Assembly: GCA_965649765.1 (NCBI GenBank)
Contig: OZ287751.1
Coordinates: forward strand, 88,660,001-88,724,000
Direction: 5' to 3'
DNA length: 64,000 nucleotides
Origin: Bispira polyomma
Lineage: Eukaryota
The position numbers were made by a program, and so were the translations under genes. Shown here one piece after another: positions 16,941 to 54,800 of this stretch. Within the stretch, counting starts at the first letter, position 1. Each line of letters starts with the position of its first letter. Under the pieces are notes generated by a model. That model was not told where the DNA came from. It did no database searches and saw only the letters and a program-made list of their open reading frames with translations.

Positions 16941-18399
16941 CATCTACAAAGAAAACAAAGTTAGAAAGATGATTTTTACATGAAAACCAATCCATGCATG
17001 TAAGCTCATTCTGCCTAATATATTGTCCAACTGACTACATTTCGGCTTAGGGGATTTGTCAGTTAATATGTATTTTCTATTGGAACCAAATTAGTTTCTT
17101 GAAAATTTCCGTAGTTAAATTTGAAAATAAGAACCTATCTCATCACAGTGAGTAAAAACAATACAATGGAAGAACCTTTATATCACTAATACAAGATTTC
17201 ATTACTGGAGTTCATATTTATGTCTAATATACAATTGTTTACATAATAACCTAAGAACGTCTGGTAAAGTGGTAATTCCACTGTCAAGTTCGATCAGCAA
17301 AATGGGCCCAATTTCAAAGTCAGAAAGTTTGGGCGAAAAAATCAATAAAATCCTTTTTTTTGGGGCAGGAAAATAAAAATGTGGCCCGATCTTTCCGTTC
17401 TAACTGATTGCGCCCCATTTTGACGGGACACCAACCATGATCAAACTTAAGGTCCATACTAAAACTTTCCCGTCCTACCCGACCCAGGTTAGGATCGAAC
17501 TTACTTGCAGTAGGATCTGACGTTTTGCCCCAAGTTTGAACATATCGGCAATACGATCTGACAGATTCAAGACCCAGAACATCAAGATTAAACGTCTAAA
17601 AATCAAAAGTCGGGACATTTAAAATTGCTTATAATTACCAATACTTGTTTCAAAATATATGCAAGAGGAATTTTTTATACATTTGTTTTATTTAAAGTAA
17701 ATAAAAATAAAATGATGGACTTTAAACAAAATAAACTGACAATTTAGTCTATTATCGTACCAATTAAAGTCTGTTCCAACCAATGTCCACAGGTGTATGT
17801 TTTTCCTGATCGGCCCGTTCACTCCGCTTTTGCCCCTGACCTATACGTTTTAACAGGCCAGTGTTAGGACAGGCCTGGAGTGAGATAAGACCTATCAGAC
17901 AGAACGTAATGACATTCCGTTCTAACTTATTCGGCGAAGCCGACCTTTCCGTTTTTAGACGGGGGATTTTTACAAAATTTTATACATGTTTGATATTCTT
18001 CCCGATCTTCCAGACCGCCCCCGTTTTCGCCTCCTACCTATACAAATTCGCCTTGGACATCAAAATCATGAAGGTGCTGAACCAAATCGGCAATGTGGAA
18101 CCACTATTTGAGACTCAACACACGAGAATCACTGTTACTGATGAACACAAGATAGTCCAGATAATCAGAACGATCTAATTTTAGGGCGGTAACCAAAAAG
18201 AGGAAGATACTTGCCAATCTTGAGATGTTGAAACAGCAACCTCAAGAGGTCAAGAACGACAGGTTAGAAGATTTGTAGGTGCTGCTACAAGCAGGTAGCA
18301 TTTCCCCCCTAAGTACCCGAGAGCAAACTGCTACTAGGACAGATACCTTAGCACAATATACTGGTTATATTCCTGATGCGACCGACAACCAATCTAGGC

Positions 18400-19090
18400 G
18401 TTCAGTCTTGCAAATGCTGATGAACTCATTTGCCACTGCTTTTCTGAGAGACAACCTGGCCATCCAGAAATGAGTGGAAAGACAATTGCAACAGCTTAAA
18501 GACAGCAATGACATAGTTGACTAACAAACAGATAAACAAATTAAATCAGGATTGTTCCAAAGTGGAGAACATCGAGCTCGTCTTAACTGGCTCAACAAGT
18601 TTCGCATGAGAGGTAACAAAATTGATCAGACGTAGATTTTACTCCTAATCAATGCTGCCAAGGGTTTATGGCTTGTTGATTAAGGAACCAGTAAACTGAA
18701 GAACATGCTTTTATACGGCATTCACTTGCTGCAAGATGCAGAAGAAAGCATTTGGTTCATGGCACAATCCTTACAGAAAATGTTACTCTAACAGATGGAA
18801 AAGGGTGATTTGGTTCAGTACAAGGAAGGCAATCATTCTATTAGGACACGTTATACCCAAAGATTCATCTTCCCAAACAAGTTTTATAAATCTATTAAAG
18901 GGTCCACTGAGAGAGAAGGTCTGCTTGCATTTGTCAACGAGGGGAATTGCTCTCATGATAGGATCGCAGTGATGAGGTAATTACCCAAATGCATACATGT
19001 TCGTACTGCCATGGAGCGGTTAAAAGATTCTTCAATCACCCAGAGGTGAAATGTGGGAGAAAAAAAAGAATTATCAAAAAATGAGGACAA
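18400..19090 (+). mobile_element. Highly decayed gag of a third Ngaro/DIRS-like element
   Basis: Fragments VERQLQQL..TDKQIKSG..QMEKGDLVQY..IRTRYTQR..FVNEGNCSHD..NHPEVKC align by eye to the gag proteins at 29310-30014 and 38854-39810; many stops and frameshifts. Confidence 0.7.
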
Positions 19091-19427
19091 AATATGAAGA
19101 AACAACTGTTTGGCTAATAAATGTTGTCGCAGCACAATTTGTATTAAACATATTAATATACAGCGATAAAATGTTTATTATTAAAAAAACACATGCAATT
19201 GGCTATCTAGGACTTTCTGAAATACTGATAATGTTAAAGCACAAAATAAAAACAAGCGGACCAGAAGATTTACATCAATAAATAGTATTGATAATCATAA
19301 CTTTGATTTATGTATTTAATGAACCATGTTTAGATCATGTTTTCAGGTCTACAGGTACGTGCAATGAATGTTTTTGCATTGCATGTTTAAAATGTGACAG
19401 GTTTCAATATATATCCAAAGATCAAGT

Positions 19428-21670: not shown

Positions 21671-23530
21671 ATGACTTCTAAAATTCACACACCGGCAAAG
21701 GTAAGCAAATATTTTTATCTAAGATTGTCAAATGTTTGTTGTACTAATTTAATGTGTGTTTTTCTGATTAAAATATTGGCATATTACTAGTTAATATAAT
21801 CTTCACGGATGCACATTTTTTTTCAGATTGTGTTGATATCTCTGCTTCTCCTATTAATATGGCACTGGGTGATGCCTCCTGAGATGCTTTATAATAATGA
21901 TAGTATGCAAAGAGTGGTGCCATCTGGATCAGGTTATTTATTTTTTTATTTCTCTCACTCAAAGTGCATGAATAAGAACAATATTACAATTACAGGTCAT
22001 GTACGATAATCACACAAGTTGTGCTTTAAAGGAAATAATTTAAAAAAAAACTAACTTTAAGTTAGTAATTTATAAAAAGCACAGATATTTGGTATACACA
22101 TATAATGATGACATTTAATCCTATAGATGCATATGAAAAATGTAATGGGCTTATCCATCCATCAATGTCATACTTACATTATCTGAATTCTGACCTTAGT
22201 GACATTTCAACAATTTACAGATAAATAAAAGTTGTATGTTTCCTTCAATTAAAGTTGATATATTTTATTGTGTTTTTTTTCAGCTACTGCAATGCACTTG
22301 GAACAGTTTATGCAAAATGATAATCAACCAGTCAAAGGAAACCAAACATGTGAACCACATAGGCACATCTTCTATCACAAAATACCTAAAACTGGTAGCT
22401 CTACATTTACAAGCATACTTAGTAGAATGATACTGAAACACAACTTGACCACATTTATGATGGATAGGCAATATCCTCACCCAAACCAAGTGCTTGCAAA
22501 ATTATTACATACAAAAAATACAGTGGAATCTAGGTTTGATATGCAGGTTAATCACGGAATATTTGATCTGCAACTTCTGGAAAAGGTTATGCAACATGAC
22601 ACAGTTTATATATCAACAATCAGACATCCTTATAGACATTTTGTGTCTCGTTTCTTCTATCATTATAAAAAGGAATCATTGGATTTCCGTGTAAACGAAT
22701 TTGAGAAAATTCTTCTGACAAGTTATTTCAAAAATGATACAAACATCTTTACATTTCGGGATGCCCATTATAATTATCTGGCCAATTCAATGTTCCAATA
22801 TTTTCAGTTTAATATGAATGAAGCTACAAAGAATGCCACTTACTTTAAAGAGTGCGTAAAACTCATAGAATCTTGGTTTACAGTAATTATCACTGATAGA
22901 TATGACGAGAGCTTGTTGTTGCTAAAGCATAAGCTCTGCTGGAATATAAAAGATATTATTTTCATTCCACATAAAAATGCATCATTTGCTGACAAAAGTA
23001 GAAAGCCCACAGAAGAAGGGATCCTATATGAAAAGCATAAACAAATCTTTAGACTCGATTATGAATTATATGATCACTTTTTGGATATCCACAAACAGGA
23101 AATACAAGCAGCTGGGGAAGAATTTCATGAAGAACTACAAGAATATCAAAGAATAAAATTGGAGGCAAGTTCTTTTTGCTGGAACATTTACTCACAACTA
23201 CAAAACAGTGAAATACAAGGAGATGTCGTCTCTTCTCTATTTTCTCAGAAGTTGGTTTTTGGTAATGGGAAATTTTGGGATACATTTTCCATTAATGGCA
23301 GTGACTGTGTTATAATGGCCATGTGTGAAGTCGATCTTTATAATGCCAGAATAGCACTCAATTATCCAATACTATGTGGTACAAAATCTACGAGAATACG
23401 CATTAATCATCATTTTTGTGCTACTGAATATGTTAACAAGACTGATGTGTTTGCTTATGACAATGTCTATTTTCCTTATTCTAAGATGAGGAAGTTGCTT
23501 CTGTGTGATTTAACTGTAACATATTCTTAA
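21671..23530 (+). CDS. GAL3ST: Galactose-3-O-sulfotransferase family, type II Golgi membrane protein (~460 aa)
   Basis: Exons 21671-21700, 21827-21932 (TM IVLISLLLLLIWHWV) and 22284-23530 join in frame with GT-AG. PAPS-binding motifs HKIPKTGSSTF and IRHPYRHFVSRFFY; family motifs DESLLLLKHKLCW and DYELYDHF. Confidence 0.92.
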
Positions 23531-24203
23531 CCTACTGATGAAGTGTGGCTCTATTGCCCTTAGTCTTAGAAGAGAAAGTTCCTTCTGTGTGGTTTAACTG
23601 TGACATACTCTTAACCTACTGATGAAGTGTAGCTCTATTTCCCTTAGTCTTAGAAGAGAGACATCCTTCTGTCTGGTTTAACTGTGACATATTCTTAACT
23701 ATTGGTGAAGTGTGGCTCTATTACCCTTAGTCTTAGAAGAAAGACTTCCTTCTGTGTGGTTTAACTGTGACATACTCTTAACCTACTGATGAAGTTTGGC
23801 TCTATTTCCCTTAGTCTTAGCAGAGAAAGTTTCTTCTGTATGGTTTAATTGAAACATATTCTTAACCTACTGGTGAAGTGTGGCTCTATTTCCCTTAGTC
23901 TTATAAGAGAAAGTTCCTTCTGTGTGATTTAACTGTAACATATTCTTAACCTACTGGTGAAGTGTGGCTCTATTTCCCTTAGTCTTAGAAGAGAAAGTTC
24001 CTTCTGTGTGATTTAACTGTGAAATACTCTTAACCTACTGATAAAGTGTGGCTCTATTTCCCTTAGTCTTGTAAGAGAAAGTTCCTTCTGTGTGATTTAA
24101 CTGTAACATATTCTTAACCTACTGGTGAAGTGTGGCTCTATTTCCCTTAGTCTTATAAGAGACTTCCTTCTGTCTGATTTAATTGTAACATATTCTTAAC
24201 CTA
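23464..24203. repeat. 84-bp tandem repeat (~9 copies) starting inside the GAL3ST C-terminus
   Basis: ctctatt recurs at 23549, 23633, 23716, 23800, 23884, 23968, 24052 and 24136. The first unit is the last ~22 codons plus the TAA. Confidence 0.95.
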
Positions 24204-26681: not shown

Positions 26682-29309
26682 ATGGACAAATTAAGATTAA
26701 AGTACTCTAAAGGAACTTGTTTATAATTGAATTTTGTGTTCAACATATTCAACGTTTCTACAGTAGGTGGATGTGCTGAATAAATTCTGGATAAAGCGTC
26801 CGCTATTATATTCTGTTTGCCAGGGATATGTTCAATGTCAAGTGTTATGTCAAATGAAGCTGCTAGTCGCAATGTATGGTTAACTTACTATGGGCCCAGT
26901 CATATGCCCAAATCCTCATAGCTATTACAATGTTCAGCATCTCGAGATGTGCTATATTTAATTCACGGTTGTAACAATTGTGAATTGGAGTGGCATAAAT
27001 TTGGTCGCCCCAAACGCCTCCAAAGCCCATAAGGCACGCATCGAGGTGAAGCTCGTTCGCATGTGGTATTATGGTAGGTTCAATATATGTAACTCAATTA
27101 TGCATTCGTAGGAATTTTAAGAACCATTCCAAATCACGTTTCATTTCTGAGTTTACCTTAATGCGTTTATCAGTGCTGCTTCTGAAGGCACTGAGGAGTC
27201 TATTTATAAAGGTGCGAGCCGGTTTAACGCATTTATGAATGTACAGTAGACTTCCCAATAGAGATTGAAATTTATTTCTAGAAATAAATGTTTTACTATA
27301 AACCTCAGCACAAATATTCCAAATTTGGGTTATCTTCTCGGTGGTAATAGAAATTGTGCCTTTCCCCACGTCTGTGTCTATTCTCAAACATGTCATGTTT
27401 TGTGTAGGAGGTGTGAGTTTCTCGCTATTCATAAGAAGACCTAATTTGTCCAAAAGTTCTGTTAACATATTGAAACCTCGTTGAGCCTTATGTTTAGGTG
27501 TAATACATACGTAATCATCGATATAACAATATAAGTTAAAACCTGACTTATTCATGAAGTAAGCGACTGCATCTGAGCATCTTTGAAAGGCCCCGCTGCT
27601 GTGCACCCACCCAAATGGGATCGCCGGATCCAGATAGAGGTGCTCATCCCAAACTATGCCCAGTTTGATGGCATCACCCGGATCGACTCTAAGGTTACGA
27701 AACGTGCGCGAAATATCAATTTTAAATAAAGTAGGTTCTGGGGTACAATGAATCGCCTGTGTGATGTCATCAATCGTGGGAAATTTTAGTTTAAATCTGA
27801 CTCCGTCGAACAGAGCTTTGTTGACATTATCGTTCAAGGAATCCCGCTCGGGATAAGAGAGATTCAGTATAACTCGCCTTTTGTCGACATCTTTTGGACG
27901 GGTTAATAAAGGTGAACAGTGTAATTGTGAGGATTGTATGGCTTTGACTGGGCCAAGCATTGCTTCATTTTCTTTTTCTTTGTTAAGATATTGGCAGACT
28001 GCCTTAGTATGTTGCAGGGCAGAAAAATGATTTTTTATTTTGACATTATTCAGACTTTTAGGACTGGTAAGACTTAAAGGGAAACCAAACTTAACATACT
28101 GGATTACCAGCTGATCAGGGTAATCTGAAAATGTGCTCTCCCAAGCACTTGGGTTTAAGCCTGATATAATTGGGATTCTGGCTTCTGATAGTTAGAAAGA
28201 TTTGTGTCACTAACTAGCTTGCCTATTTCGATCATTTTCTGTACAGAATCAATTTTAATGGGTTGCCTATCAGGACCCTGAAATGTGAATTGTGTGGGAG
28301 AAAGGGCAATGAAGCCAATTGTTTTGTCCAGACTATTTATGTCAATACTGTGGTTTTTAGCGTCCTTATATTCACTACTGTCCATATTGTTACAGTTTTC
28401 GAAGAAGACGGTCGGGTGTTTGATTCTAGCTTGTAAGTCGTTCTTACTCACCTTGACCTGTTTGCTGCTTATATTGTTTATTTTAATTTCACTTTTACTA
28501 ACCTTTGCAGCCCTCTCAGCTGCCCACTGTGATTGCTCAATCAACGCGTCAATTATTTTTTCCATGTATGATGTATAATTAAAATTGTAATACAAAGAAC
28601 ACTGCAGATCTCTCTTATGGTAATAGAAATCATTACCTGCCTGTTTCATTAAATTTGGACAATGTTTACCAATGCTAAAATAATCCTTATTCATGGTGTT
28701 ATTTTGCACACATATATCTGTATAATATGTGTCCAAGATCTGCAGGGTACCTGTTGAAGATATAGCTGTAGAAGAATATATCATACAGTTATTAACAACA
28801 CAATGGCAGAGACAGTAGAACCCACTTTGAAACTGTTCATTTCCGCTGCTACTGATGTATGCCACTGGGGCCCTCACTCCACCATAATTTGAAATTTCAT
28901 ATAAATTTGTTACTGAGACCTTCACTGCAATGCTAGGTTTAAAGTGGTTCAGCTGTTTCGGCCAAGATACATTTTCATTAACAGTGGTATGTTTGTCAGT
29001 ATTAATATAGAAATCATTTGCAGTCGAATTGACTGTCGATCTACAATTACCATAGCAACTGTTACTCGTTGCACATATTTTATCAGTATTTCCAACATTA
29101 ACCGTAATACTTGAATTTACAGAATCACTATGTACACATATATCGTTTTCAGAACCTCGCACGTGCACATTGTTGGCAATGTTCATCTTAACAGAATCAT
29201 AATGTTCCCTGCTTGGGTTGTATTTCTTTTTACTGTCTAAATCATTAGTATAACTGCCCTGCTCAACTTTCAACACTAACTTTTCGCTGATTGGCTGACG
29301 GGAATGTCC
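26678..29309 (-). pseudogene. pol (linker + RT + RNase H) of DIRS copy 1
   Basis: KRRVILNLSYP, KIDISRTFR, PFGW, YIDD, HLDACL, HIPGKQNIIADALSR. Frameshift near 28175, TGA at 27094, deletion/frameshift in RNase H near 26870. Confidence 0.9.
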
Positions 29310-30698
29310 CTAACGGTTACTTGTTTGTTCAGAATTTTTATTCAAATTGGACTTAAAACATTTGAATTCTGGATGCACTGCATCTTTCCCCAATGTTTTT
29401 GAGCAGTGCCAACAAATATGCCTATAATTAGCGTGATCAGTTTTGTAAGAGCATTTCCCATTGTTAAACAATTTGCAAATCGTCTTAAACTCATTGGATT
29501 TCCCCTTAGACGCCTCATTGCTGGTATTATTGTTATTTCCCCCTATTAATGCCATTTGTGATGCACTCAACCTATTTAGGGCCCATTGCATTTGATTGTC
29601 CCATGTCAGTCGCCCCTCTTCCACCTCTTGCATGCTATGACCCCAGGCCGAGCGAACTACAGGCCAGGGAAGAGCAGCTGCATCTCTTAGTGTATGGACC
29701 ACTTGCTGGATCATACCTCGCGATAGCGTCGGGTCTGTCACCAAAAGGACGTTATTAAGTTGCCCAGCTGCCCACTGAGCCAAGGATAGGTGGTCAAAAG
29801 TGGGCTTTCTTCTTGTGTTTGCGCCCACCCAGCCCTCGTTCGGCCACCGAAGTTTTGGATCTGCAGTGGTGATGTCCGAGCTATTGTAGCGTCCCGACTT
29901 TTGTTTAGAAGGTGTCTTACCTTGTAAAATATCTTTCTGGATGCCAGCTTCATAGCCCGCTAGCTGACTGGCTATCGCCGCTTGTATGGCTGGAATTGCC
30001 CGAAGTGTGTCCAACTGTGGTGCGACACCGTCCCTGAGAAATTCTTGCTAAACCGGAAGTTGTGTGGCCAAACTAGGATTGGCTGATGAAGTGCTGCTGA
30101 TATGAGTTGCAGGGATCGTCGTGGGTGGATTGGCCCCAGTAACACCTGTAGCCGGTGTCGTAAGTGTGACTCGCTGTGTCTGTGCCGTTTCCACCCTCCT
30201 GATGCGCTTGCTCAGTTCAGCATTTGATATTTCCAACCTCCTAAGGATAGCCAGCATTTCGTTTGAATTATCATGGCTCGTGACTGTATTCGCCAAAGGT
30301 TGTTGCCCCTGAGTAGTCGGTTGCAAGGAAATGGTCCCGGGTAACGTTGGGAAACGTGGAGGTGTGACCCCAGCATAAGTACCATCTTTGTCTACTGTCT
30401 GGTAACCCAGCGTGTGGGGAAGTAACACGTTTGCGTTAATGTTCGAGGACGCACGTGCTGGTGTGGCCTGAGCATAAGCTACTTCGATACTGGCAGAGAC
30501 CGATGAAAAGGGATCTGGAGAGTGGTCAGACGACCTAGAAGCTAGAGCCGTTAATTGTGCTTGCACTTCAGAAGCTATAAAGTCTGATACCTGGTGGCCG
30601 TCGCCCGTTGGGATCCCCTGTGATTTCTTTGTCCTTGCCTTTGTTGTTTTCGCCACGGGTGTCTTCTTGGTCTTGCCCATATTCACCGTGTAACACAC
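29310..30698 (-). pseudogene. gag of DIRS copy 1
   Basis: Two ORFs in the same frame split by TAG at 30050-30048; C-terminal CKLFNNGKC..HICWHC..HPEFKC finger. Confidence 0.85.
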
Positions 30699-33294: not shown

Positions 33295-33590
33295 TAGTAT
33301 AGTAACTTTTGTAATACCAATACTGGGCAAATGATCTTATTCTCTAAAGTTGGCAATTGTATAATGTGGGTATCTGTTCTATTCTGTAGATTGTTTGCCC
33401 ATTTAATGATGATATGGACTTCTGGGTGACCAAAGGCCACGTGTTGACGTAAAAAGTGTCTAGACACATCAAATAAGGCCATAGAATGTGGGGCAATGTT
33501 TGCTACCCTTAAGAATACGAAGAAAGCTACTAAGAATATTAATCTGTACAACGTGTGTGTTATCTAAGCCCTTGCATGCCCTAGATATCT
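33295..33590 (-). mobile_element. Isolated DIRS tyrosine-recombinase fragment
   Basis: FFVFLRVANIAPHS..RHFLRQ..IKWANNLQNRTDTHIIQLP..ICPVLVLQKL closely parallels the YR of copy 1. Confidence 0.85.
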
Positions 33591-34329
33591 AAAACAATTG
33601 TTTACAATCTTATCCCTGATCTTTATGACATGCTAAATGGTTGTTTCTTAATTAAATAATTGAAACTGTGTATATGACAGTGCTGTTTCGACAAATATAA
33701 TAACTGTGGCATGACGTGAGAAATATCTCTACTGAATTTGTGACAAGCACGAATATACATTACATTTGATAACAGGGTATTCAGAAGTCCAGAAATATTT
33801 AAAATTACTTGTTTGAAAGCAGGCTTTAAAAATTATCTATCTTTTTCTACTGGCTGGTTGTCATAACTAGAAGGTTAAATCCCCTCAAAGGTAATATGTA
33901 TAACAAACATATATGTCTTCTACAAGCATGCAGACATTTAACCTTGAAGCTCTACATTCAAGCTCATCCACAAAGTGCCAAAGCAGTGGAGTTGCCAGGA
34001 TTTTTCATCTGGTACTCCCAAATTAAACCAATATATTAGGTTCTTTTTTGTCCTACCAAAAATTCAATTCGTGGTGGTGGTGGTGGGGGGGGGGGGGGGG
34101 GGGGGGGGGGGAGGAGGTCATTAACATAATATTGTGGTTTAATTGGGGAGTACCAAATAAAATTTTATTTAACAACAAGAATCTATGTTACTAATAAAAC
34201 AAACAGAAAAAAAATAGAAATTTAAATTAATTTAATTAGATTTTTTCTTTTTTTTTTTCAATTTTTTTTTTCTTTATTTTTTTTTTTTTTCTTTCTTGTC
34301 ATTAAATTGATACGCCTGGGCGTACTGGC

Positions 34330-34742: not shown

Positions 34743-36290
34743 AAACTGAGAGCAAATGAAACTATATATGCAATGAATAGTTCCCTACAAAAACTATTTT
34801 ACAACTCTATAAGAGGCGAAATTTATATGCAATTCTAAGCACACATGGAATAATAAATCTAAATTTCCATCAAACATCTTTATTTTTTTTTGCTTTTAAC
34901 TTTTCCAATAATACGTAACATAAAAATAATGACGTTAGAGAATATAAACGACGTCTTTTATTATGTCAATGTTTCTAAGAGTGACGTCACAACTGACGTA
35001 ATTTAGCTATTAAAGGTCTTTTATAGTTCTACAGGCGAGCGAGTTATAAAAATTGTAGATTAACTAGAATTGTTTCTTTGGTTGGTGCTATCGAATTACC
35101 TGCACACAACCGCTGAGAAATTTAGCATTATAGCTACGTCTGATAACAGGATTGATGGTCTGCCAGAAAGTGGCGAAGGAGGTATGATGGAGACAGATTT
35201 TAGTGAAAGCCTTATAACTATCTCAGTCCACGATATGACAGACAGTAGATTATTGTGATTGGAGCAAATGATGATATCCCACATTGTGGAAGAGTGAAAA
35301 TGTTACCAAGAAACGAGAATCCATTTATGGACTATTTATTATCGGATGGTTATGGAAGTGTATTGGATGTTGAATTTAGTACAGAAGAAAGATCTTATAT
35401 TGACATGGCTGCCTTGCAGTGACTACTCTGGGAGGGCTGCAGTGTCTAATGGATATACCTGATGCCTACGTTAAGGCAAATGACATTGAAGATGAGGATG
35501 CAGTTAAACTTCTGGGAAGTTATACTAGGGCCAAAGTTGTCCGTCTTGGAGGTATTAATCAGACTGATAGCTCTGAACAAAATGACAACAACAAAAGGGA
35601 AAGTATAGTCACAGAGGCAGTCTTAGTCTCTGAAACTGACACCTTTCAGAGAGCTGACATGGACGATACTGAAAGTAATAAGCGGTGAACCCTACAAGAT
35701 TGAAGACTGGGAAATTGACGAAATTCTGCCTGAAAGTGACAGAAAAAGAGTTGCACCGATTTGATTGTTTGAACATCCATACAAAGGTAATGATAACGTG
35801 AATGGCTTATAAGCCAATAAAACCTTTGCCATAGGTGTCTGCCAAGAGCCCAAATGGGAGATTCCTAAAAATAACATAGACATAGACAAATCCTATGACA
35901 GTGACGATAATGGGAAACCATATTCTATGGAGGGTCTTCGTCAATGCCACAAAGTAGCATAGCCAGTCAGCCGCGAAAATGTTATACATGACGGTACTGT
36001 CTATTTCAAAACTATTTGCTCATCACAGCCACTCAAACACCAGGGCTACATCAACTAGGTTATATCTAACTTTATTATATACAGTATATACAACAGATAG
36101 GTTGCCTAGGATTGACTTTAAGGTCACCTCAGGTACTTAAGGTCACCATAAATTAAGTTTTTGGTTCAGGTCAAACAAGGTGAACCTCAAGGTAACACCA
36201 AGATCGTTGCATTGCGATACAGTAATTTTTGCAATGGACTCTTATCTGAAACACAGAGGGAGTACAAGGAAACATCCAACACATTACGCA

Positions 36291-38845
36291 TTATATCTCT
36301 GTATTAAGTACTAAATGCTGATCTGTAACTGGACACCACTGGACTGCACCTACAAGGCTATTTAATAAAGTATGATCTTGAGTGGAATTTCTCCATCTGG
36401 AAAGCAAGTCTGCAGTAGTGTTATGTTCACCTAGTATATGAATAACTTGTAACTCCACATCATAATGGCTAGCCAGCATAAAAATGTTACGGGAATACAA
36501 AGCTAAAATACTATCTTTAGTTCTCCCATTGGTGAGGACACTAACCACAGCCTGATTATCACATTTTATGAGGACCTTATGACCTTGCCACAAGGTACCC
36601 CATAATTTCAAGGCCACAAATATATTCAACATCTCCAACAGGCAATATTAAGGTGTTGTAAATCAATAGGTATGGTCAGTGTATATACTTTCTGGCCATA
36701 ACCCCCCCCCCCCCCCATGCCTGTCAAGCAAGCGTCTAGTTCTATTATGGCTGTAATGGGGTTATGGTGGAAAAAAGAGACACCATTCAATTTTTTTAGA
36801 AAGATTCTGAACCAATTGAAGTCTTTTTGAAATTCCGTGGTGATTTTAAATGTTTTGCCTTTGTAATTACTTCGAAGAAGATGAAGCATTCTGTTCAAGA
36901 AAAATCTTGAGTATTTGACACATTTTGAGACATATAGGAGAGAACCCAGTAAACACTGGAGTTCCTTTTTTGTACAATACTTTTTTCCAGCCCAATTGTC
37001 ACACATGGCTTGGATGGTAATTAATTTTTCCTCTGGAATAGAGGTAGTAAAGTCAACAGTGTCTATAATAATACCGAGACAAGTAACCCGAGTGGCAGGA
37101 GGTACCAATTTCTTGTCACTCAAGGTCAGACCTAACTCAGCAAGCAAGGCTTGTAAGTGATGGTAGGTTCAGTATATTTTTGACGGAACCGAGCAGCAAA
37201 GGAGATCGTCTATATAATTTATGATATGGTGACCTTCACCTTGCATAATATATCTCACCCCGTCCGAGAGTCGCTGAAATATTGCCGAGCCGTGCTTGTA
37301 GCCAAAGGGGAGCAAACCATCCACGTAATAGCCATCCCAATAAAGCCCCAGCAAATTTAGTTCTTTTGGATCCACAGGCACGTGTCTAAAAGCACGACTA
37401 ATATCAGTTTTGAAAATTAGTGAATTTCTACCCATAGCAAGGACTTGAGACGTTATAGTGTCTATAGATGGATATGTTAACAAGAATTCCTTATCTAGAT
37501 AAGCAATTGGACACACAGCAGCATTCACTGAATGCCCTTCTGGCCAGCTAAGGTCTATGATCACATGACGGTTAGTTGAGCTCGACTTATCTCGGGTCAT
37601 AAAGAGGGAAGTATGTAATTTTAAAATTGGTGGCACCTCAAAGGGACCATACATGGCCCCCAGCCTACATTCTTCCTCCAAGTAGTGACTAACATGATCT
37701 GGATATCGAGTTGCAGAGGAATGATTATCAAGGTCAGACTTAAACTCGTTTCCATTAGCACAGTCAAGAGGAAAGCCAAATTTGATCAGTAACGGGAGTT
37801 CCCAGTCCCAGTAGTTTCTCAAGTATTCAGCCCACACTGAGGCATTCAGTTGAGAACTGACAGGAATTTGTAGTCCCCTATAATTAGGACGGCCATCACG
37901 TTGTAAATATTTATGCAGTGTAAACACATTCATAGAATCTTGTTCATTGGATTTGTCTAGAATTGGCTTCCCCCAGGACGAAAGTGGAATAAATCCAAAC
38001 TTCCCACAATTTTGAATGTCCCATAACTTAAAAGTATCACACGCTTTCGTGTCATGAAGTCTTTTCCTTTTATCGGAGGACCTGCGCATATCCAGAGTAT
38101 ATTTGTCATCAGTCAAATTGATTTTATTTTTACCAAGTTTTTTGATGGGAGTTAACACCTTGACATTTGGTTTCATTGTTTTATTGACAGGCGAGCCTGT
38201 GTTACAATGTGAACTCCCCACACAATAGCCATTGTTATTCACACCTTCCCCCTCCCCACAAGCCGTGTTTAACACAGCATATCGATTGTGAAGTGGTAAT
38301 TGGAAGTCATTGTTCTTTGCCACAGTATCAAACCTATTTGACTGAGACAATGGCTTGTTGACAACTTGTTGGTTAACGGTGGGGTCAAGCCCCTTGGACA
38401 CTTTTACTGAGTTGGTTTTGACACCTCGTTCACAATTATGGTGAGTGCCATTGTTGTGTTTATCCCGCCTGTCAGTCCGATTGGAATAATGTGCAGTGTT
38501 ATTTTTACCTATATTTTGACCTTTTTTGTCGAATACAACCCCTTTTACATTTGTAAATGTTTTGTTTTTGTTTTTGACAAGAATTCTGAAAAGTACACTA
38601 TTTCCTCCAATTCCGCCCACAGCTGAATTTTCTCTGGGAATTTTGTCAACCACACAACCCTTCACAAGTACATCTTTATAAGATCTTTTTACATTTTTGT
38701 TAGAACAAGCATACTGTTTAAAACACATGTTAGAACATAGGTTAAAATCTTTGAATTTCGAATTATACACGACTCTGGTAAACACTGATATACCCACTGC
38801 ACTTTTGCAGTAGGCCCTTAGTTTTTTGGCCCCTTTTTCGGACAT
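36291..38845 (-). pseudogene. pol (linker + RT + RNase H) of DIRS copy 2
   Basis: RT and RNase H motifs; in-frame TGA at 37169 and a frameshift near 36640. Confidence 0.9.
38793..38827 (-). promoter_or_regulatory. Predicted -1 programmed ribosomal frameshift signal (gag-pol)
   Basis: A AAA AAC in gag frame, 6-nt spacer, hairpin CCUACUGCA-AAAG-UGCAGUGGG; pol is in the -1 frame. Confidence 0.7.
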
Positions 38846-39835
38846 AACTTGGTTTAATGAGCACCGTCACACGTTTCACAACAGTGTTTAAATAGTTGCC
38901 CAGAGGTTTGGTGATTAGCATTAAATTTGCAGGTGCCCTCCTGATAAAATCTACATACAACGCCTTGAGTTTTACTCTGTGACTTTTGCTTATTGCTAGT
39001 ACTGGTTTTTGAACTACTATTACCACTGGCACTATTTGATATATGACGTTGAGCGTGTGCCCGGCGTGTGCGGTCAACTTTGTCCACATCAGTCCAGTTA
39101 AGTCGGTCTAACTCCATATTTGTCAGTAATATGGCATGTGAAGCTTTGGCCGCCTCCCACGAAAAATCGTGGGCGTCGTCCATCAGGTTGACTAGATATT
39201 CAAGCATTGCTTCCTTAACTTCCGCCGACTTTTGCTCTTGCACGCACCTTACGAATCCCGAGGTAAACTGTACCAAAGTTAAATCGTCATAAGTCGGACA
39301 GACCTTTTTAGTACCGGAAAACACAAAATTTTGTGGCCAATCCACAGATCTTTTAATTGGGGCATCAGTGCCACCTCGTTGGGATTTCAATTTACCTGCC
39401 CTAGTTATTCCATTCAACTGTTGTAGCTGCAGTAACCTTTGATCAACTTGTGACTGCAAATTTTCGTTTGAACGCAAGAATGATAGAGAAGGGACTAGTG
39501 CCTCGACCACTGGTTCCACTACATTACTAGCGCCTACACTAGGAACAACATTTACATTGCCAACAGGTAAAGTACTACATGCCTTACTGGCGCTGGGTGT
39601 GCACAGCGCCGCCTCTGTAACCTTCACACGCTGGTCCATGCTATCCATCTTCTGGTTTAACGACTGCAGTTGTAGTAGAATCTGCTCAGACAAAGAGTCG
39701 GATACCTGTACAGTAGCAGGACCAGCTGTGGGTACATCATCGGCGACGCTGTCATCAACAACAAAACGACACTTTCTGCCTACAGGCCGTTCGTTTCTAC
39801 CCATACACATACTACATTGGTACTCCTTTTTTTTA
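38818..39835 (-). pseudogene. gag of DIRS copy 2
   Basis: N-terminal CSMC..RPVGRKC knuckle; WPQNFV..YDDLTLVQF..FSWEAAK..; C-terminal CRFYQEGTC..HCCETCDGAH. Probable premature TAA at 38854; the natural stop is probably at 38820-38818. Confidence 0.85.
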
Positions 39836-40259
39836 AAATGAGGTTTTAAAACATAAAAAGTGGGTAGTAACGTCCAGTTGTAAAAACACTCTTAATGTGT
39901 GACAAGTTAAAATTTAATGATGGCGCTGATAGGGCGCCAAAGCCTTTTACAGTTGTCCTCGTGACCCCAGGTGGCCTAATTGGCCCCGAATACCATTCTT
40001 CCCCGACATTTTTGAAGTGTCAGGCCACCAAACACAAGATTTTAAGTAGAGAGTATTTACAACAAAAAAAACAGATGTTTTGAAGACTTTTTGATAGGTC
40101 TTACCATAACCCAACTAGTATTGCTTTTACAGATGTAACGTATTGTCAATGACCCTGCAAACATCTTTTATTCTAATTGAAACTCACAGAGGAAAATAAA
40201 TTTAGTTTTTAGTGTATATATATTTTTATAGAGGTTGCACATTCTTGTTAATTGGCCGT

Positions 40260-45173: not shown

Positions 45174-47464
45174 CTTGAAAAAGCTCCACAAATAAGTATG
45201 TCAAATAAAGTTAACCAGAAATCTCTCTAAAACGTCCTCTGCCTGTGTGTGTGCAAATAACAGATCTGTTCTTCCAATTATTAAATACATATTATTATCA
45301 TGGCTCAATCATCATTTGTAGTCATGCTTGCTCAGACAGAACCGAATATATTAATATCACCAGTGGTGAGCCAGTGAATTTCTCCACCCAGTAGCAAATA
45401 TGCACATACCTTTGCTTTGTTTATTTATTCATACAAATCGTGCTCAAGGACAAAAACTGATACAACACAATTATATTAAGAAGAAAACAGAACAAAGATC
45501 AACATAAAACATTTTCACACAGTACACAAATATCTATTCAAATGATTTCCATTTGCATTAAAATTATTACAATTGTTATCTCTAATAAACATTAAATCTT
45601 TTGTGTTTTCCACTACTGATAAATCATCTTCTTTTTACATATTTTGGTAAAATTAACCAAACACTCTTTTCCAATATACTTGGTGACAAAGATACTGTAG
45701 CTCTAGTACACTTAAAATGTTATATCCATGTTTTACTATGCCAATCATAGCCCCACCAATCGTTATGATTATAAGATCTGGGTAATTATTGGGGAGGTCG
45801 GGGGGGGTTTCAACACCTTATCGTTTCCAATCGTGAAAATTTCTGTGAGCAGGGGTAAATATGTGGGGCACGGTCAATCAATAGGGGCCAATCAGGGCCA
45901 ATCGTAACCCACTTACGACTTATCTTTACCTTCTATCGATATATCTTTTCAATCTTCCCCTAAATCGTTTGAAATTTTATCCCGATTTATCTTTCCATCA
46001 CAAAGATAGGTCGGGGCGATTACAAGTCATCTTTTCACCCCCTGCTACTAAAAGCAAAAGCTACTAAATGTGCAGCAAACGAGGCCTACTCCCACTCTAT
46101 GAAGGCGAGCCGCAGAACCTCAACTACCACAGCTACCAGTTAATATGACTTATCCTGAAGCGAGTTCGCGAACGCAGGTTCATTACAACTTCCCTAATGC
46201 CATCACAAGACATGATATCGTTTCAACCACTGATGTCTTACGTCATTCTGTCTTACTACAAAATGAAATCAGTGCCAGACTACAGCCGTATGAGACCCTG
46301 GCTGCAAGTGAACTACTACAGGGTATACGACTTGATTATATGGGACAAATTAGACTTCACCATCTATCTTAGTCCCAAGCTTTGATGCCAAATAACACCT
46401 TGGCCAGTTCACTGTTAAATCGCCAAACTCACAAGGCTCGAAGTCGCGTGTCCGGTGCAGACACTTTCAGAAAAGCTTGTGTAACCAGGAAGGGGACCAC
46501 AAGAATGCAATTACCATTTTTAAGCACATATGCCCAAACTGCTTTAGGATGACCAGGAAAGACAATACTCACTTAGAAGCAAAGTGTTACAAACTTCATG
46601 GTGAACCAACGACTACACGATAGACAGGACAATAGGACAGGAGATCGCCCACAGTTAATACTGGTGTAGTCAATAATGTAGAAATGTAACAAAACTGTAA
46701 ACGAGTGTAAAAAGGACATAAATAATAGGACAAATGAGTTATAGACAATAATAAGATTTTGACAAGTATGGATGGTAAGAGTCATCAAATGAGAACTACG
46801 GTTAAATATGGTGGTAATAGACAAACAGTTAAAATATTAGAAGATAAAATTAAGAATGATATTTATAAAAGGTTCAAGCAGGATCATAATATTGCATGTG
46901 AACATTTTAATGTTAAAGACAGTGACGAGAACATTATGTGTATAGACAATGACAGTAAAATAACAAAAATATATAATAAGAATGTACAGAAGTTGGTGTA
47001 TGGTGAAAATAAGTGTTGCATAGATAAAAAAGAAAAATAACATTTATAGTGTTAACGTACAAATGTGTAACAAAAATGTACAAATCAGATACTCGGATTT
47101 GTATATCAGTGAAAGGGAAAGTTGTGTATATAATATGTATGTGTATTGTGGGATAGACAACAATAACCTCAGATTTACAGGAATTTATACTGAGACAACA
47201 AAAGAATGTACCCATGTTTAATGGTACTCAGTATAATATCAATGATGTATGTCCAGTGACATATTATACGTCACTGAAAATTCACATAATTGAAAAAAAA
47301 ATAATCAAAAATCAGTAGCAATAGAACAAGAAGAAAACAAATAAGCAAGAAGAACAAACCAAAAGACAGTACACATACAAGAACAAAAGTTGAGAATGCA
47401 TAGTATTATGTTGACATGATTGACAATATGATGATTTCACAATGTACTCATGAGACAAAAGTAA

Positions 47465-47803: not shown

Positions 47804-50654
47804 ATAGATATTTTCGCCATCACAGAAACACACATTAGGAGTTCTGATACTCCATCATTCCTCTCTGAACTTACCCCAGCTGACTTTCAGCTATTCCATA
47901 CCCCTCGTGTAGGTAAACAGGGTGAGGGGGGGTGGGATTTTTTATTAAGAAAAACTATGAATGTCGATTAGTTGCTACACCAAGTTTTAAATCTCACTAC
48001 ATTTTTCGAAGAATTCATGTCCTTTGTTGGGTTTACTTGCTCGGTGCCCTCTCCTACTGTATTCTGTGGGGATTTCAATATTCACATAGACACCGCATCT
48101 GGAAATAGTAATCGGTTTTCCACAGTTTTGGAATCTTGTAATCTTACCCAACACATAAATTTCCCTACCCATATTCATGGGCATACACTAGACTGCTTGC
48201 TAACTCCGACTGATTTCAATGGTATCAGAAACATAAAAAACATTGGTTGCATCAGTGATCATTTTTCGATATCCTGTGAAATTGATGCTCCCTCCCCACC
48301 ATCTTTTGATGTCACACAAATCACTTTTCGGCAATTTCAAAAAATCAATATGTCTGACCTTAGACGAGAGTTGGCAGATACGGCCTTCGTCAAGTCTCCT
48401 GCTGATAATGCCACTGACCTATACACACAGTACTGCACTGACCTGCAGTCTCTTATAGAACGCCATGCGCCATGTAAATCAAAGACATTGAAGAAGCCAG
48501 CACCTGAGTGGATCACCAGTAATTATCGTGAAATGAAGATGCTGCGCAGACAAGCCGAACGAACATGGCGCCGAAACAAAAATACTACAAATAGATATAG
48601 ACTACGCCAATGGATCACCCAGTGCAACAACACTATAAATGACTCAAAACATGCCTACTATGCTAAGATGATATCACAAAGCGAGGGTGACCCGAAGAAA
48701 CTTTGGCAAAAACTAAATAGCACCCTCCACAGTAAAAAACAGACTATACTACCAGAAAATTCCAATAGCAAATCACTGGCAAACATTTTTAGTACTTTTT
48801 TCACTGATAAAATTACCAGAATCCGTGACGGTTTTACATTAGCTGCCCCAAATGCCCCTTTACCAACATCTCCACCAACCGTCTTCAACTGTTTCTCCAC
48901 AGTAACTGTTGATGAAGTCAGGAAAATTATACTGGCATCACCCGTAAAATCTTGCTTGCTAGATCCGTGGCCCACATTCCTTGTCAAAGAATGTATTGAC
49001 ATTTTATTGCCCTCAATCACAAAACTTATCAACCTCTCGTTGATAAATGGCGTCTTTCCAGATGACTTTAAAAAGGCTATTGTCACTCCTCTAATAAAAA
49101 AACCTTCTCTTCCAAAGGCGGACTTGAAAAATTACCGTCCTGTCTCAGGCCTTTGCTATATCTCTAAGTTGGTAGAACGCGCGGTTGCCTTACAGATCAA
49201 ACAACATGTTGACATCAGCAATCTGTCCAATAAGTATCAGTCAGCATACAAAAGTGGTCATTCTACTGAGACTGCACTTCTCTCCATCAAAAATTATGTT
49301 CATACATCTTTATCCAAAGGTATGTCTACTGCCTTAGTACTGCTGGATCTGTCAGCAGCCTTTGATACTATTGATCACAGAGTTCTTCTTGAGTGCCTAT
49401 CGTCTTGGTTCGGTATCAGCGGTATGGCACTTAAGTGGTTCACGGCATATTTATCTGATAGATTCTAATCAGTCAAAATTGGCAATATCTTATCCGACCC
49501 AACATGGTTAAAATTTGGTGTTCCCCAAGGTTCCGTCCTGGGTCCCATTTTGTTTTCCATGTACACCACTCCACTCAGCAAGATTATTGCTGCATACAAA
49601 AACATAAACTTTCACTTCTATGCTGATGATACCCAACTGTACATCCACCTTACACCTGACTCTGCCCAGGTAGCTTTCACTTCCTTTCTGAACTGCTTTG
49701 TTGATGTACAACACTGGATGGCAGCAAATAAACTTAAGCTGAACCCTGAGAAGACTGAGTTTATTTTGTTTGGCTCCAAGTCACAACGGGAAAAATTGTC
49801 CAGCTGTTTTCCACTTGACATTCTTGGCAGCAGGCTATTTCCAGCTGACAAAGTACGAAACCTGGGTGTGGTGTTCGAGTCTGAATTCTCCTTCTTTAAC
49901 CATGTCGCATCAGTGTGTAGATCATGTTTTGTTGGCCTCCGTGATTTCAGGCGGATTCGACGCTATCTTTCCAAATCCACTGCAATCACTGTTGCCAATG
50001 CTTTGGTCAACAGTAGGCTTGATTACTGCAACTCTCTGTTCCGTTCCTTATCTCGTAGTGATCTCAGACGCCTTCAGAATATCCAACACTCATTGGCACG
50101 TATTGTGACCAAAACTTCTAAATTTTCCCACATTACTCCTGTACTCAAGTCACTGCACTGGCTCCCAATAAAATATCGTATTGCTTTCAAAACAGCAACA
50201 ATAATATATAAATTTCTAAATTCTGGATTACCCACTTATTTTAGCCCCCATCTATCCAAATATACATGCTCAGTCAGGACAAGGCGCAGTAACCCTGATA
50301 AATTATACCTTAACATTCCCACTTTCGACCCTCGCATCCACAAATCCAAAGTTCAGTTCAATCACTGTCTAGCTCATGATGGCCCCCTCATTTGGAACAG
50401 CCTACCTGATCATGTTCGCCTGGCTCAAACTTTCTCCTCTTTCAGGAGTAAGCTGAAGGCCTATCTTTTTGAACAGGCTTTTCCACCTTAGCCGTCGCAA
50501 CCATTTACGGCAGTCTCCCTGGTTACGACTTCCATCCGCCCACTATTTTTTTGATTTTCGATTAACGTTTTGGGTTTGTTGCGCCTTAGAATTTGTTGTA
50601 CAAAGATTAAGCGCTATAAAAGTACGACTAGATTAGATTAGATTAGATTAGATT
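47804..50654 (+). mobile_element. L2/CR1-clade LINE, 5'-truncated ORF2 (APE endonuclease + RT) with (TAGAT)n tail
   Basis: IDIFAITETH, GDFNIH, GHTLD, SDHF (EN); YRPVS, LDLSAAFDTIDH, GVPQGSVLGP, YADDTQLY (RT); LHWLP. Frameshift(s) near 47930-48000, in-frame TAA at 49466; tail 50629-50654. Confidence 0.95.
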
Positions 50655-51064
50655 CATCAGTTCTAATTACACTGCTGCAATCTGACATAGACATATACCA
50701 GACAAAATCAGTAGTGACAACAATAAGAAAGACGAGTATGAAACAATGATAAAGAAAATATGATTTCATAACAAAGGGAAAAATTAATTATTCATTTTAG
50801 GACCAGACAGACAAACAATTGATATCACTGATTTTGAAACATTAATATCAATATATGACGTACTAAAACAGACTGGGAGTTTAAATTATAAGATGGCAAG
50901 AATACCAATAAAATAAGGACCAAAAATAGAGAATTAGAGGAGGTACTTAAGAGACTATATGAAGATGAATTATTAATACAATATTGAGAATATGGATTTC
51001 TCATTTCTTTATATGATAGACAAAAACTGGACAATAAACATACTGACAATCATTTCTAAGCAAA

Positions 51065-51297
51065 CCACTCTAGTACCTGTGTAGGTTATATTGGGACGGG
51101 TAGTTGGAAATGCTGGAGGAAATACCGCGTACAGTTGATCAAGGTTCTGCACTGAAACCAGCAATCCACAGTAAGAAACTAACACCTTTTCCACATAAGC
51201 ATTGACAGGATTCGAACCCACGCCCGCCAATCCCAGAGGTGAGAGACCAGTGATTGTGAAGCGCAATGCTTGCTAGCCACTAGGCCAGTGCGGCCCC
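51065..51297 (-). mobile_element. tRNA-derived SINE (same family as 61696)
   Basis: tggcctagtgg A box, ggttcgaatcc B box; core ggtttcagtgcagaaccttgatcaactgta identical to the 61696 copy. Confidence 0.9.
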
Positions 51298-51494
51298 AAG
51301 TACTTTACTAAGGAGAGAGACATAATTATAAGAGGCACAATTATAGGTCGAATTTAAAAAATATTCAGGAAGACTTCTATTGTTCTCCTCTACTGACAAG
51401 ACCCACAATTGACAAAATAGTCCAGGAAATTCAAAGTTGAGGAAAAAGTGCTATGTTAGCGAACGTCAACATTGCGCATGTGCTTCGCAACCTA

Positions 51495-51855
51495 TGAGTG
51501 GATCCGGTAGATCGCTTAACACTCGGATATAAATGGTAAGACAATCATTTTATTGATGTAGTGTGGACGATTTGACTCAGTCTTTATCCACGTTTCTGAC
51601 GAAATTAACGTACATCATGCATCAGAATAGTTATAAAGTATTAAACTATAAAGAAGATTTCAATATGGTTGAAGAATAAACTAAGGCGACCTTAGCTTAT
51701 TAGTTTCTGATAGAATTAATGCAGCAACCAATTCTTCCAATTAATGAATCAAAATTAGTTACACTTAGCAAAAAGGTGACATGCTTGGGCATAGTAATTG
51801 ATATTGACCAAAAAACCCTTAGCATTGATACTGAGAAATTATAAAGTATACACAA
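51495..51855 (+). mobile_element. Decayed DIRS RT fragment
   Basis: VDPVDRLTLGYKW.. and PINESKLVTLSKKVTCLGIVIDIDQKTLSIDTEKL parallel the RT of copies 1 and 2. Confidence 0.7.
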
Positions 51856-54800
51856 GTAAATGTACATCTATACCAATTTTAAATATAATTATTCCCATGC
51901 AAAATTCTGCTTGTTAAGTCTTTGAAGGTACATGTGAACATGAAGTTGTTGCGACGAATTATATCAAGTGTGGTATGGATGAATGCGACTGTTAGATTGT
52001 TAGATGGTAAACAAGCTAAATTACTGTAAAGTGTGTAGGATTTGTCAGTGAATAGCTATGCATTCTGTTGTGACCATGACATTACGGAAAATGCCTATCC
52101 ATCAATTTAATGGGTCCTATCTGGTACCATCTGGACTCCTTGTGATTCTATATTTGGAGTAGTTTTACAGAGGTGAGTTTGTTTTGAAATACCAATAATA
52201 ATGATTGAAAGATAAGTGATAGAGTTCCTCGGAAGTTCCTCGCCAAATTTAAATATATAGAGTAACCCTGGGCAGTTACATAAAGCAGTAAAGAATGTAT
52301 ACCTAAAGACTACTGTGAGAAAGAAGAGGAGCAATTTACGTTGTACAACAGTTATTCTAGTTGTTATCCACTCGTTTTGAAATGTTGTTTTGTTTCTCCT
52401 AAAATTCAGTTGATATTCTTGTGTCTATTGATTGCTTGCCTACTCTTGTTCACAGTGAAACTTTTTCACTAAACACTTTTCTTATTAACTATATTTTCAA
52501 CATATTCATAATAAACATATTCTCAATCACTTCTCTTCCATCATTTTCCCAATAACAACATGTATATTCATAAAAATCCCTTTATATATTACTCACCATT
52601 TTTCACTAATTTTTTTCTCGGTAGCTTCTTTTCCAAAAAACATTTTCTCTGTCACTCAGCTTGTGGCTGCCACTGTTTGTATGCTTTAAAATTTTAATTT
52701 TTTAATTGCCCATTTTACATATTACAATTAATACATTCAGTTAAGTTAACAAAGTATTAGAAAACGGATAATACCATTCTCCACCTTGATCTATATGTGT
52801 GAGTTGCTTTTGGTGTATTTATCAGAGTGTCTTTAGATTTAGAAACTGATAACTCAAATTATTCTGATACATGTAGATGCACTGAAACACCGGTTCGTTT
52901 CATTTACCTCCATGAAGACTTCAATGACCAAGGTTTAAAAATCACAGAGAAAGATGGTCATCTGGATCCATATTGTGACACTCAGACTTAACTCAATGTT
53001 ATGTGGAAGTCACTGTATATGAAAATGATCTATATTTGTGACTATTCATTTAAATGCAGCTTTCAATGCTGCATTCAGAAATTCAGTCAGATTTCATATA
53101 TGTTCCCTCTAGCCAGTGATAGGGATGCCTTACAACTGTGCCATAGTCTGACTTAAGTTTGACATTGTTGGAACATATGGCAACTGGTAAACAAATATTC
53201 CATGCTCCATGTAAACAGCCTTCAACTACTTTGAATCTGTCATATTTTTTAAAAAAAGCATAAGCTTTAAACAACACTGGTGACTTTTTTATTTTCATTT
53301 TAAAGAAAACTGACAAGATGCCACATCTTGTGAGTATGAGACCACCATTTAAAAATATAAAGGCCAGCATAGTATATGACAGTTGAAACGTGGTGAGATG
53401 GCACAAACTAAATTAAATAAGAAGCTTGTGTAATATCATTTTGATGCAGTTAACTGGATCTATTTCTAATAGATAAAAAAATGTCAGTTATTACTATATA
53501 TCATATTGCATCTAATTATTTACCCTTTTCATATGTCATTACTTGAGTTTACTAACGTTTGAAATCTGACTCAAAAAAGTGATGTTTGCTGCAGTGAAGT
53601 TAGAGTTATCTTTCACTATAGGATCTGCGGAATATGTTTCTAATAAAATATATCCAAGATCATCTTTAACGAGTAATTTTTATTTTCCTGTAGAAACTTT
53701 AGTGAACACCACTGCATCTAAACGTTTTTCATTAAATTCGTGACAATTTTAAAAATGCACCACTACTAATAATTATAGCTAAAAAGGATGATGTAAGCTA
53801 AGTGTTTGACACAATGCCTTCAGCTGACCTTGAAGATAGTGACAAGAAGATGGAGGTATATATATATATTTTCTACATATCTATATATAACACCAGTTTA
53901 AGACTACCATTAATTAAGTTTTAATACAAGTTAATTTAAGTGTACTTTAAATTACTTCAGAGGTGAGGTTACCTTAGGATACCCGAGCGGGCCACCTTAA
54001 CTTGAGTTTACGTTAAGCACATATATATAGAGTTTCACATAATGACAATATGTCATGATGATTATAACCGTCAAGTTCTAAAAGGTTAAACAGATTTCCT
54101 TAGTTCTAACATGTTCATTATAACCTTTACTGAAATCTTGTAATAGGTCAACAAATAAGTAAATCAAATAAACTAGAAATATCTCTAAAACGACAACTGC
54201 TTGTGTCTGTAAATATGAGATCTGTTCTTCCAATTATCAAATACATATTACCATGACTCACATTGTGCACAGATCCAACTCAGGTAGATATAAGACAGGT
54301 ATTAAAGATATAAAGGTAATGTAAAACAGTTGCTACATAAAACAAAACATATATGAGTCCATTATGGCATCTGTATGCCAATCCAACCAACTGCGACAGC
54401 CTAGGCACCGAGGAGACCCAGAATGATGCAAGTGCCAGAACGCCTAATGACGTGTGTTTGTATACTTGAGATGAAATGCAAGAGTGGCAGCAAAGGTGTG
54501 GAACTTTGACAGTTATTTTTCTAAATCTACACTCAGTAACGTTGTGAAATTTGGTCACTGACCAAATCAGAGATAATGTGTATTCACTGAAATTCCTGGT
54601 TGTAGATTCACTGTAACATGTAAACATTAAAAAATCTTAAACTAGTTTAATATATAATTTAGTAATATTAATTGCCATGCATAAATATCTATATGAAATG
54701 AGATCAATTTGCGGGGTAAGCGGGTTAGCAGCCGTATTTCCGAGAAAAAAAAATCAAGCTCAGACTCAACTCTGAGTTTTGCTCAGTTGCTATGGTGACA

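Follow-up and report, generated by a model that had tools for sequence, protein, structure and literature searches.

In canonical -1 programmed ribosomal frameshifting (PRF), a slippery heptamer X XXY YYZ in the phase of the upstream gene is followed by an RNA structure, expected 5-9 nt downstream. A_AAA_AAC sites occur at the gag-pro junctions of MMTV and HTLV and at the astrovirus ORF1a/1b junction, and in gammaretroviruses a stop codon divides gag from a pol that is in the same frame. The accessible part of a review on frameshifting places A_AAA_AAC among the shiftiest heptamers on mammalian ribosomes, counts -1 gag-pol arrangements in 28 of 51 animal LTR retrotransposons from a 2003 survey, and mentions neither DIRS elements nor tyrosine recombinases (PMC5009743). 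UGA_CUAG is known as a readthrough-prone signal (PMC9841425, accessible text). For retrotransposons carrying a tyrosine recombinase (YR), the accessible literature rarely addresses how the AUG-poor pol and recombinase frames are expressed; Poulter and Butler 2015 propose frameshifting at the pol-YR junction, as quoted in the accessible part of PMC13003380.

We analysed 64,000 nucleotides of Bispira polyomma DNA (the window; contig OZ287751.1, positions 88,660,001 to 88,724,000), in which an earlier note had described a -1 frameshift signal at the gag-pol junction of one retroelement, numbered copy 2. On the minus strand this junction reads CCA AAA AAC TAA GGG CCT ACT GCA AAA GTG CAG TGG G. Exactly where the note had placed it, the heptamer A AAA AAC (38821..38827) stands in gag phase and hence in the X XXY YYZ register of a canonical signal, and it encodes K-N ahead of the family gag stop UAA (38818..38820), giving the C-terminus KKGPKN*. 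The stop follows immediately 3' of the heptamer and falls within a 5-6 nt spacer, beyond which a stimulatory hairpin is predicted (38792..38815, minus strand). Its core matches the earlier description, with 9 bp (38814-38793; arms 38814-38806/38801-38793), a single U-G pair, an AAAG loop (38805-38802) and a spacer of 6 nt. Pairing of G38815 with U38792 lengthens the stem to 10 bp, so that the spacer counts as 5 or 6 nt, which fits the position expected of a -1 PRF structure. The hairpin energy of -16.1 kcal/mol was equalled by 0/200 shuffles of a 31-mer and 5/200 of a 60-mer, and the fold was not significant in the shuffle test of a 100-mer context (z -1.38). Both strands of the window together contain 896 canonical heptamers, 42 of them AAAAAAC; a hairpin of -12 kcal/mol or lower at 4-9 nt 3' accompanies two of the 896 (copy 2 site, + 39910), and the one at the copy 2 junction is the stronger. 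The pol reading (AKKLRAYCKSAVG, with the peptide ..AKKLRAYCK..) is indeed in the -1 frame, which stays open for 552 codons past the heptamer, into the reverse transcriptase (RT) domain. The junction had no match in Rfam, and a search of viral contigs for the heptamer-hairpin pattern found nothing.

The ORF that ends at this signal (38818..39891, minus strand) is gag-like, with an N-terminal Cys motif, a core of helices and, at the C-terminus, one CCCH-like and one CCHC-like zinc knuckle. We call this putative protein Gag from its position and knuckles and not from a fold match: with a structure model of pLDDT 69.5 and pTM 0.37, fold searches gave generic helical matches only. A premature UAA in the last zinc knuckle (38854..38856, minus strand) is private to copy 2 or nearly so, being missing from about 96% of the contig depth of the same organism; because of it, ribosomes on copy 2 itself would terminate 27 nt short of the heptamer. 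The pol ORF in the -1 frame (36291..38866, minus strand) encodes a long variable linker, RT and RNase H, with no methyltransferase; its RT and RNase H are interrupted, by a stop codon (37171-37169) and, near 36700-36640, by a frameshift. With the premature gag stop and these later breaks, copy 2 preserves the signal as a fossil: the junction architecture stands as proposed, and gag of this copy is not intact. The sole YR trace of copy 2 is a distant fragment (33300..33551, minus strand), possibly foreign to its family given 63% identity to the YR of copy 1. A 40-bp inverted repeat that encloses a run of G (34003-34162) lies between pol and this fragment.

Contigs of the same organism, from three runs of one study, were aligned to 38300-39500 at 80% likeness. 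Summed contig depth was highest in the bin that holds the heptamer and hairpin (38792-38832), at 6281 against 1426 and 3613 in the flanking bins (X1), and the pol linker beside it was weakly covered. Loose contig ends in X3 fell on the outer edges of heptamer and stem, with 12 contigs at 38828 and 10 at 38794. The heptamer was unchanged among the 40 of 465 differences listed, so that rarer changes would go unseen, and none of the indels listed, 12 of 15, fell in its A run. At the U-G pair of the hairpin, 25-28 contigs per run, making up 96% of depth, had C in place of U, giving a Watson-Crick pair. Another 13-14 contigs carried a changed loop base, and the stem was retained in a group of variants whose loop read GUGA. 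The earlier note had tied its proposal to conservation in the family. Checked on these contigs, on protein homologues and on distant DNA relatives, this was borne out: the heptamer is kept in phase, the hairpin is kept in the close clade, and stem variants in these contigs retain pairing, with the U-G pair turned into a Watson-Crick pair in most.

Protein homologues extend this pattern. From 76 Gag homologues we took the 36 intact close ones with both zinc knuckles, and K-N stood at or near the end in 33/36, as the C-terminus itself in 25, as K-N-x in six and as K-N-E-S plus a short tail in two; three ended three residues early. A further 147 Gag representatives included 52 with both knuckles, which ended in K-N or K-N-x in 22 cases, had K-N within 16 residues in 13 and had none in 17. 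Proteins crossing the junction showed a different motif in each frame, KK[LR]xx[HY]CxxAV (-1), QKTxxPLQxCSG (+1) and KNESGTAKMQC (0); jointly, KK[LR] in the -1 readings and QKT in the +1 readings force A AAA AAC. In 12 peptide readings, the genetic code forced 51 pairs of the stem in the window register and ruled out 5; when the register was slid, forced pairs numbered 6-25 and impossible ones 22-59. The pairing count is inflated because the readings were partly picked by a window-like motif. The outer C-G pair of the window stem is exchanged for a code-forced G-C pair in P0052, P0279 and P0173. Four close pol readings (P0160, P0167, P0180 and P0194) have KKR and lack the HC..AV stem motif. 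No longer fused Gag-Pol proteins were found in the protein search, which is weak evidence. Judged from sequence, the copy 2 feature is conserved and very likely a functional signal in its family.

We then looked at distant relatives. An RT alignment gave 55 loci (53 + 1 + 1) at 27-45% identity, and a Gag alignment against viral and metagenome contigs gave none. As all loci found by RT are distant, the close clade is represented without long DNA. The junction counts leave out near-duplicates (L015, L016, L038), damaged loci (L022, L039-L042, L045, L047, L049, L050), 11 loci with pol open to the contig start and nine with no recognisable gag end (L005, L010, L035, L046, L048, L051-L054); L022 and L041 had been in an earlier count and were dropped as circular. 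Ten junctions were of the -1 type (window, L009, L014, L019, L023, L026, L027, L031, L037, L043), and 15 were in frame, with pol behind a single stop. In-phase A AAA AAC was present in 10/10 independently phased -1 junctions (the window and nine metagenome loci, also tallied as 9/9 phased junctions plus L031), 0-33 nt before the gag stop and, in L009, L027 and L031, 21-33 nt upstream of it. The same heptamer was in phase at 0/15 in-frame junctions and 0/4340 gag-body codon positions; the junction rows are mutually related, so that Fisher p-values for such comparisons overstate independence. The in-frame stop was UGA in 14/15 junctions, with the context UGA-CU in 11, UGA-CUA in nine and UGA-CUAG in six, and pol stops were UGA in only 2/33. 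Among intact junctions none was +1, the +1 cases being damaged copies. The damaged copy L039 carries AACAAAC.

Downstream structures of the distant -1 families are not homologous to the window hairpin and are often unremarkable. At 70 nt, 3' structure reached p<0.05 in three of seven -1 rows (W2, L023, L041), and it was weak in L014 (z +1.5) and L026 (-1.9 kcal/mol). Separately, in one distant clade of the -1 type a stem is predicted some 8 nt past the heptamer (L027 after 591, L031 after 5240, L041 after 594), with arms that differ yet remain complementary (L027 GGAGUCC/GGGCUCC, L031 GGGACUC/GAGUUCC, L041 GAGGAGUC/GACUCCUC). A by-eye reading of L019 (1468-1500) finds a possible H-type pseudoknot past the heptamer (GACUA/UAGUC, CUCC/GGAG). 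Readthrough-type stops shared no structure among the 14 examined, p<0.05 being reached in damaged L022 alone. The RT tree, a quick IQ-TREE run in which W1 forms a long branch and 10 protein rows are labelled from peptides only, has three separate -1 groups, and its well-supported branches require at least three mode switches. As read from the junctions, recoding in these elements has two modes, the sister families, including copy 1, using a putative in-frame gag-stop-pol arrangement. One complete readthrough-type element with long direct repeats (L055) sits in a bacterial MAG contig and is probably binning contamination.

The three elements numbered as copies are separate families, and copies 1 and 2 share 38% identity in RT and 21% in Gag. 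In copy 1 (30710-25695, minus strand), gag and pol share one frame with a single UAG between them; the pol linker and the conserved pre-RT motif GFIxL have the same frame as this junction (gag UAG GGA, 29307..29312, minus strand). It is the sole UAG among the 15 in-frame junctions, and the window thus holds a frameshift-type (copy 2) and an in-frame-type (copy 1) junction 10 kb apart. The AAAAAAT in copy 3 (19076-82) had been offered as supporting evidence. This AAAAAAU is out of phase with the copy's own knuckle (HPEVKCGRKKRIIKK*), with no hairpin at the site (z -0.18) and no downstream pol match, and so lends no support. What is left of copy 3 itself (18200-19100, plus strand) is a decayed piece of gag that closes with IIKK-UGA-GGA in the phase of its knuckle and is followed by no pol, and more decayed gag-knuckle and RT fragments of the same element group lie at 46420-46620 and 50958-51920 (both plus strand). 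Elsewhere the window contains a satellite array with a 43-bp unit, about 104 copies and strong strand skew (12238-16671), an unbroken ORF resembling galactose-3-O-sulfotransferase (22259-23530, plus strand) whose end overlaps an 84-bp tandem array (23466-24203), and a LINE-type endonuclease-RT element interrupted by a stop (47972-50491, plus strand).

What can be read directly for the copy 2 signal is its sequence, the frames, the conservation and the either-or pattern against in-frame stops. We consider it highly probable that the heptamer and predicted hairpin form a programmed -1 frameshift signal of a Ngaro-like YR retrotransposon, seen here in a dead copy. Pol could instead come from spliced RNA, with AAC-UAA/UGA as a branch-point look-alike (CURAY) and the hairpin regulating splicing. 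Conserved YR splice signals do exist in these elements, and in one distant -1 clade (L014, L019, L026, L043) a YAG preceded by a pyrimidine-rich stretch lies 16-21 nt past the gag stop; those YAGs, however, read as phase 2, whereas YR acceptors are phase 1 (25/30), and L023 of the same clade has no such YAG. An acceptor-like site is absent at the window junction, which splicing therefore fits poorly, and in 12/16 in-frame junction rows. Splicing moreover requires neither an open -1 frame across the heptamer nor a complete A6C, and we regard it as very unlikely to account for pol, a minor rival in that distant clade. Initiation of pol at its own AUG, by leaky scanning, reinitiation or a subgenomic RNA, would make the overlap incidental, and is about as improbable. 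A pol-frame AUG does lie 18 nt upstream of the window heptamer, and P0078, P0090 and P0102 begin at a similar Met, but no other DNA row of the -1 type has an upstream AUG, and few of the 120 listed pol proteins start upstream of the junction, their predicted starts being spread over hundreds of residues. There is no conserved pol AUG: the first one is scattered from +9 to +1206 nt past the junction, which argues against independent initiation, and falls inside the conserved pre-RT or RT region at several loci (in L021 inside the RT domain). An own-AUG start would also leave the heptamer-or-UGA-C pattern unexplained.

The signal could also reflect no recoding at all, K-N being retained for what the Gag protein does and the hairpin serving packaging or replication. 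Retroelement RNA hairpins serve other roles too, and protein ends alone do not tell codons apart. At the -1 junctions, however, the codons are always AAA AAC with a preceding A, and the site lies 21-33 nt ahead of the stop in L009, L027 and L031 and is absent from the in-frame families; we give this explanation hardly any credence. Polymerase slippage during transcription or reverse transcription, in which the ribosome takes no part, is brought to mind by the run of six A. Against it stand the shortness of the run, its invariable final C and its invariable ribosomal phase; the stem keeps a fixed spacing in the close clade, and the indels listed (12 of 15) include none in the run, so we rate slippage of this kind as exceedingly improbable. 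Production of Gag-Pol through ribosomal frameshifting in a YR retrotransposon, as the note had proposed, would best explain the conserved heptamer and hairpin.

The recombinase is likely reached by another route, for which splicing fits well. We predict a phase-1 splice donor CAG|GUAAAU in gag (39390..39398, minus strand; the intron would start at 39395) and an acceptor just past the pol stop, with a pyrimidine tract and a CAG ending at 36246 (36246..36270, minus strand); the corresponding donor and acceptor positions in copy 1 are 29920 and 26672 (minus strand). A phase-1 donor G|GUAA lies at a conserved G-K motif of gag in 16/27 junction rows, several of the others being truncated or damaged, and the best acceptor before YR is phase 1 in 25/30 rows. 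The frame of YR relative to pol varies between 0, +1 and -1. These signals suggest that splicing yields a half-Gag-YR fusion, in place of the frameshift proposed at pol-YR in the literature.

In intact family members, most ribosomes would terminate at the UAA past K-N and release Gag. A minority would pause at the hairpin with AAA in the P site and AAC in the A site, slip back one base as both tRNAs shift in tandem on A AAA AAC, and go on to translate a linker of about 290 residues and then RT and RNase H, producing Gag-Pol. Here we infer the slippage, its rate, the function of the hairpin and the packaging of Gag-Pol. Since pol has no protease domain, Gag-Pol would presumably not be cut by an element enzyme. 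Sister families likely reach Gag-Pol by readthrough of a UGA-C(UAG)-type stop, and the recombinase likely derives from a separate phase-1 splice out of mid-gag. On balance, we lean towards a widespread Ngaro-like clade with three routes out of a single transcription unit (Gag termination, Gag-Pol recoding and a half-Gag-recombinase fusion by a conserved phase-1 splice) and at least three flips of the recoding step between frameshifting on an invariant A AAA AAC and readthrough at UGA-CUAG.

The features of copy 2 point to a Ngaro-like element within the DIRS order. Its label as a DIRS copy is right for the order and not for a DIRS1-like element, which the missing methyltransferase argues against. 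Gene order, the lack of a methyltransferase and the split direct repeats of L043 together indicate a Ngaro-like element as described in the accessible part of PMC9210276. In copy 1 and its RT-tree neighbours L003, L004, L006 and L007, gag, RT/RNase H and YR follow one another with little or no overlap. No methyltransferase follows RNase H in the copy 2 pol or in any of the 120 pol proteins listed. Split direct repeats (A1..B1 A2 B2) are no longer found in the window; the full pattern is present in L043, and direct repeats are present in L004 and L006. Inverted terminal repeats were found neither in the decayed copy 2 nor, at >=40 nt, in 9/10 relatives scanned, and the inverted repeat pair of L055 is not element-terminal. 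An LTR retrotransposon or retrovirus was considered and rejected: pol comprises RT and RNase H only, there is no LTR pair, and YR follows in relatives.

The frameshift mechanism is textbook; its setting in a YR element and its alternation with readthrough appear undescribed. For YR retrotransposons, the literature searched, mostly non-subscription, describes neither a slippery site nor a readthrough motif at gag-pol; frameshifting there may already be suggested by Goodwin and Poulter 2004 and by Poulter and Butler 2015. The loci offer exact, testable signals for the expression of pol and recombinase in YR retrotransposons. They would widen the range of -1 frameshifting and of UGA-C readthrough to include a retroelement order with neither protease nor integrase, and provide a natural series in which to study how one recoding mode replaces another. 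For annotation, in-frame stops and -1 shifts at the gag-pol junction should not be counted as decay.

Among described systems, the copy 2 family resembles Ngaro-like elements in the gag-RT/RNase H-YR order, the absence of a methyltransferase and the split repeats of a relative, and the accessible parts of the reports on such elements do not describe a gag-pol recoding signal (PMC9210276, PMC8547959, PMC3783388). In contrast to the pol-YR frameshift quoted in the accessible text of PMC13003380, these relatives have variable frames and splice acceptors at that position. Likeness to the UGA_CUAG motif belongs to the in-frame stops of the sister families and not to the copy 2 junction. As in animal LTR retrotransposons, the Gag-Pol ratio is likely set by a tandem-slippage heptamer, but the copy 2 family has no LTRs, protease or DDE integrase. 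With the -1 PRF signals of retroviruses and astroviruses it shares the heptamer, the 5-6 nt spacer, a short stable hairpin and the passage from a structural ORF to a polymerase ORF in the -1 frame; it differs from them as a protease-less and integrase-less YR retrotransposon whose gag stop lies within the spacer.
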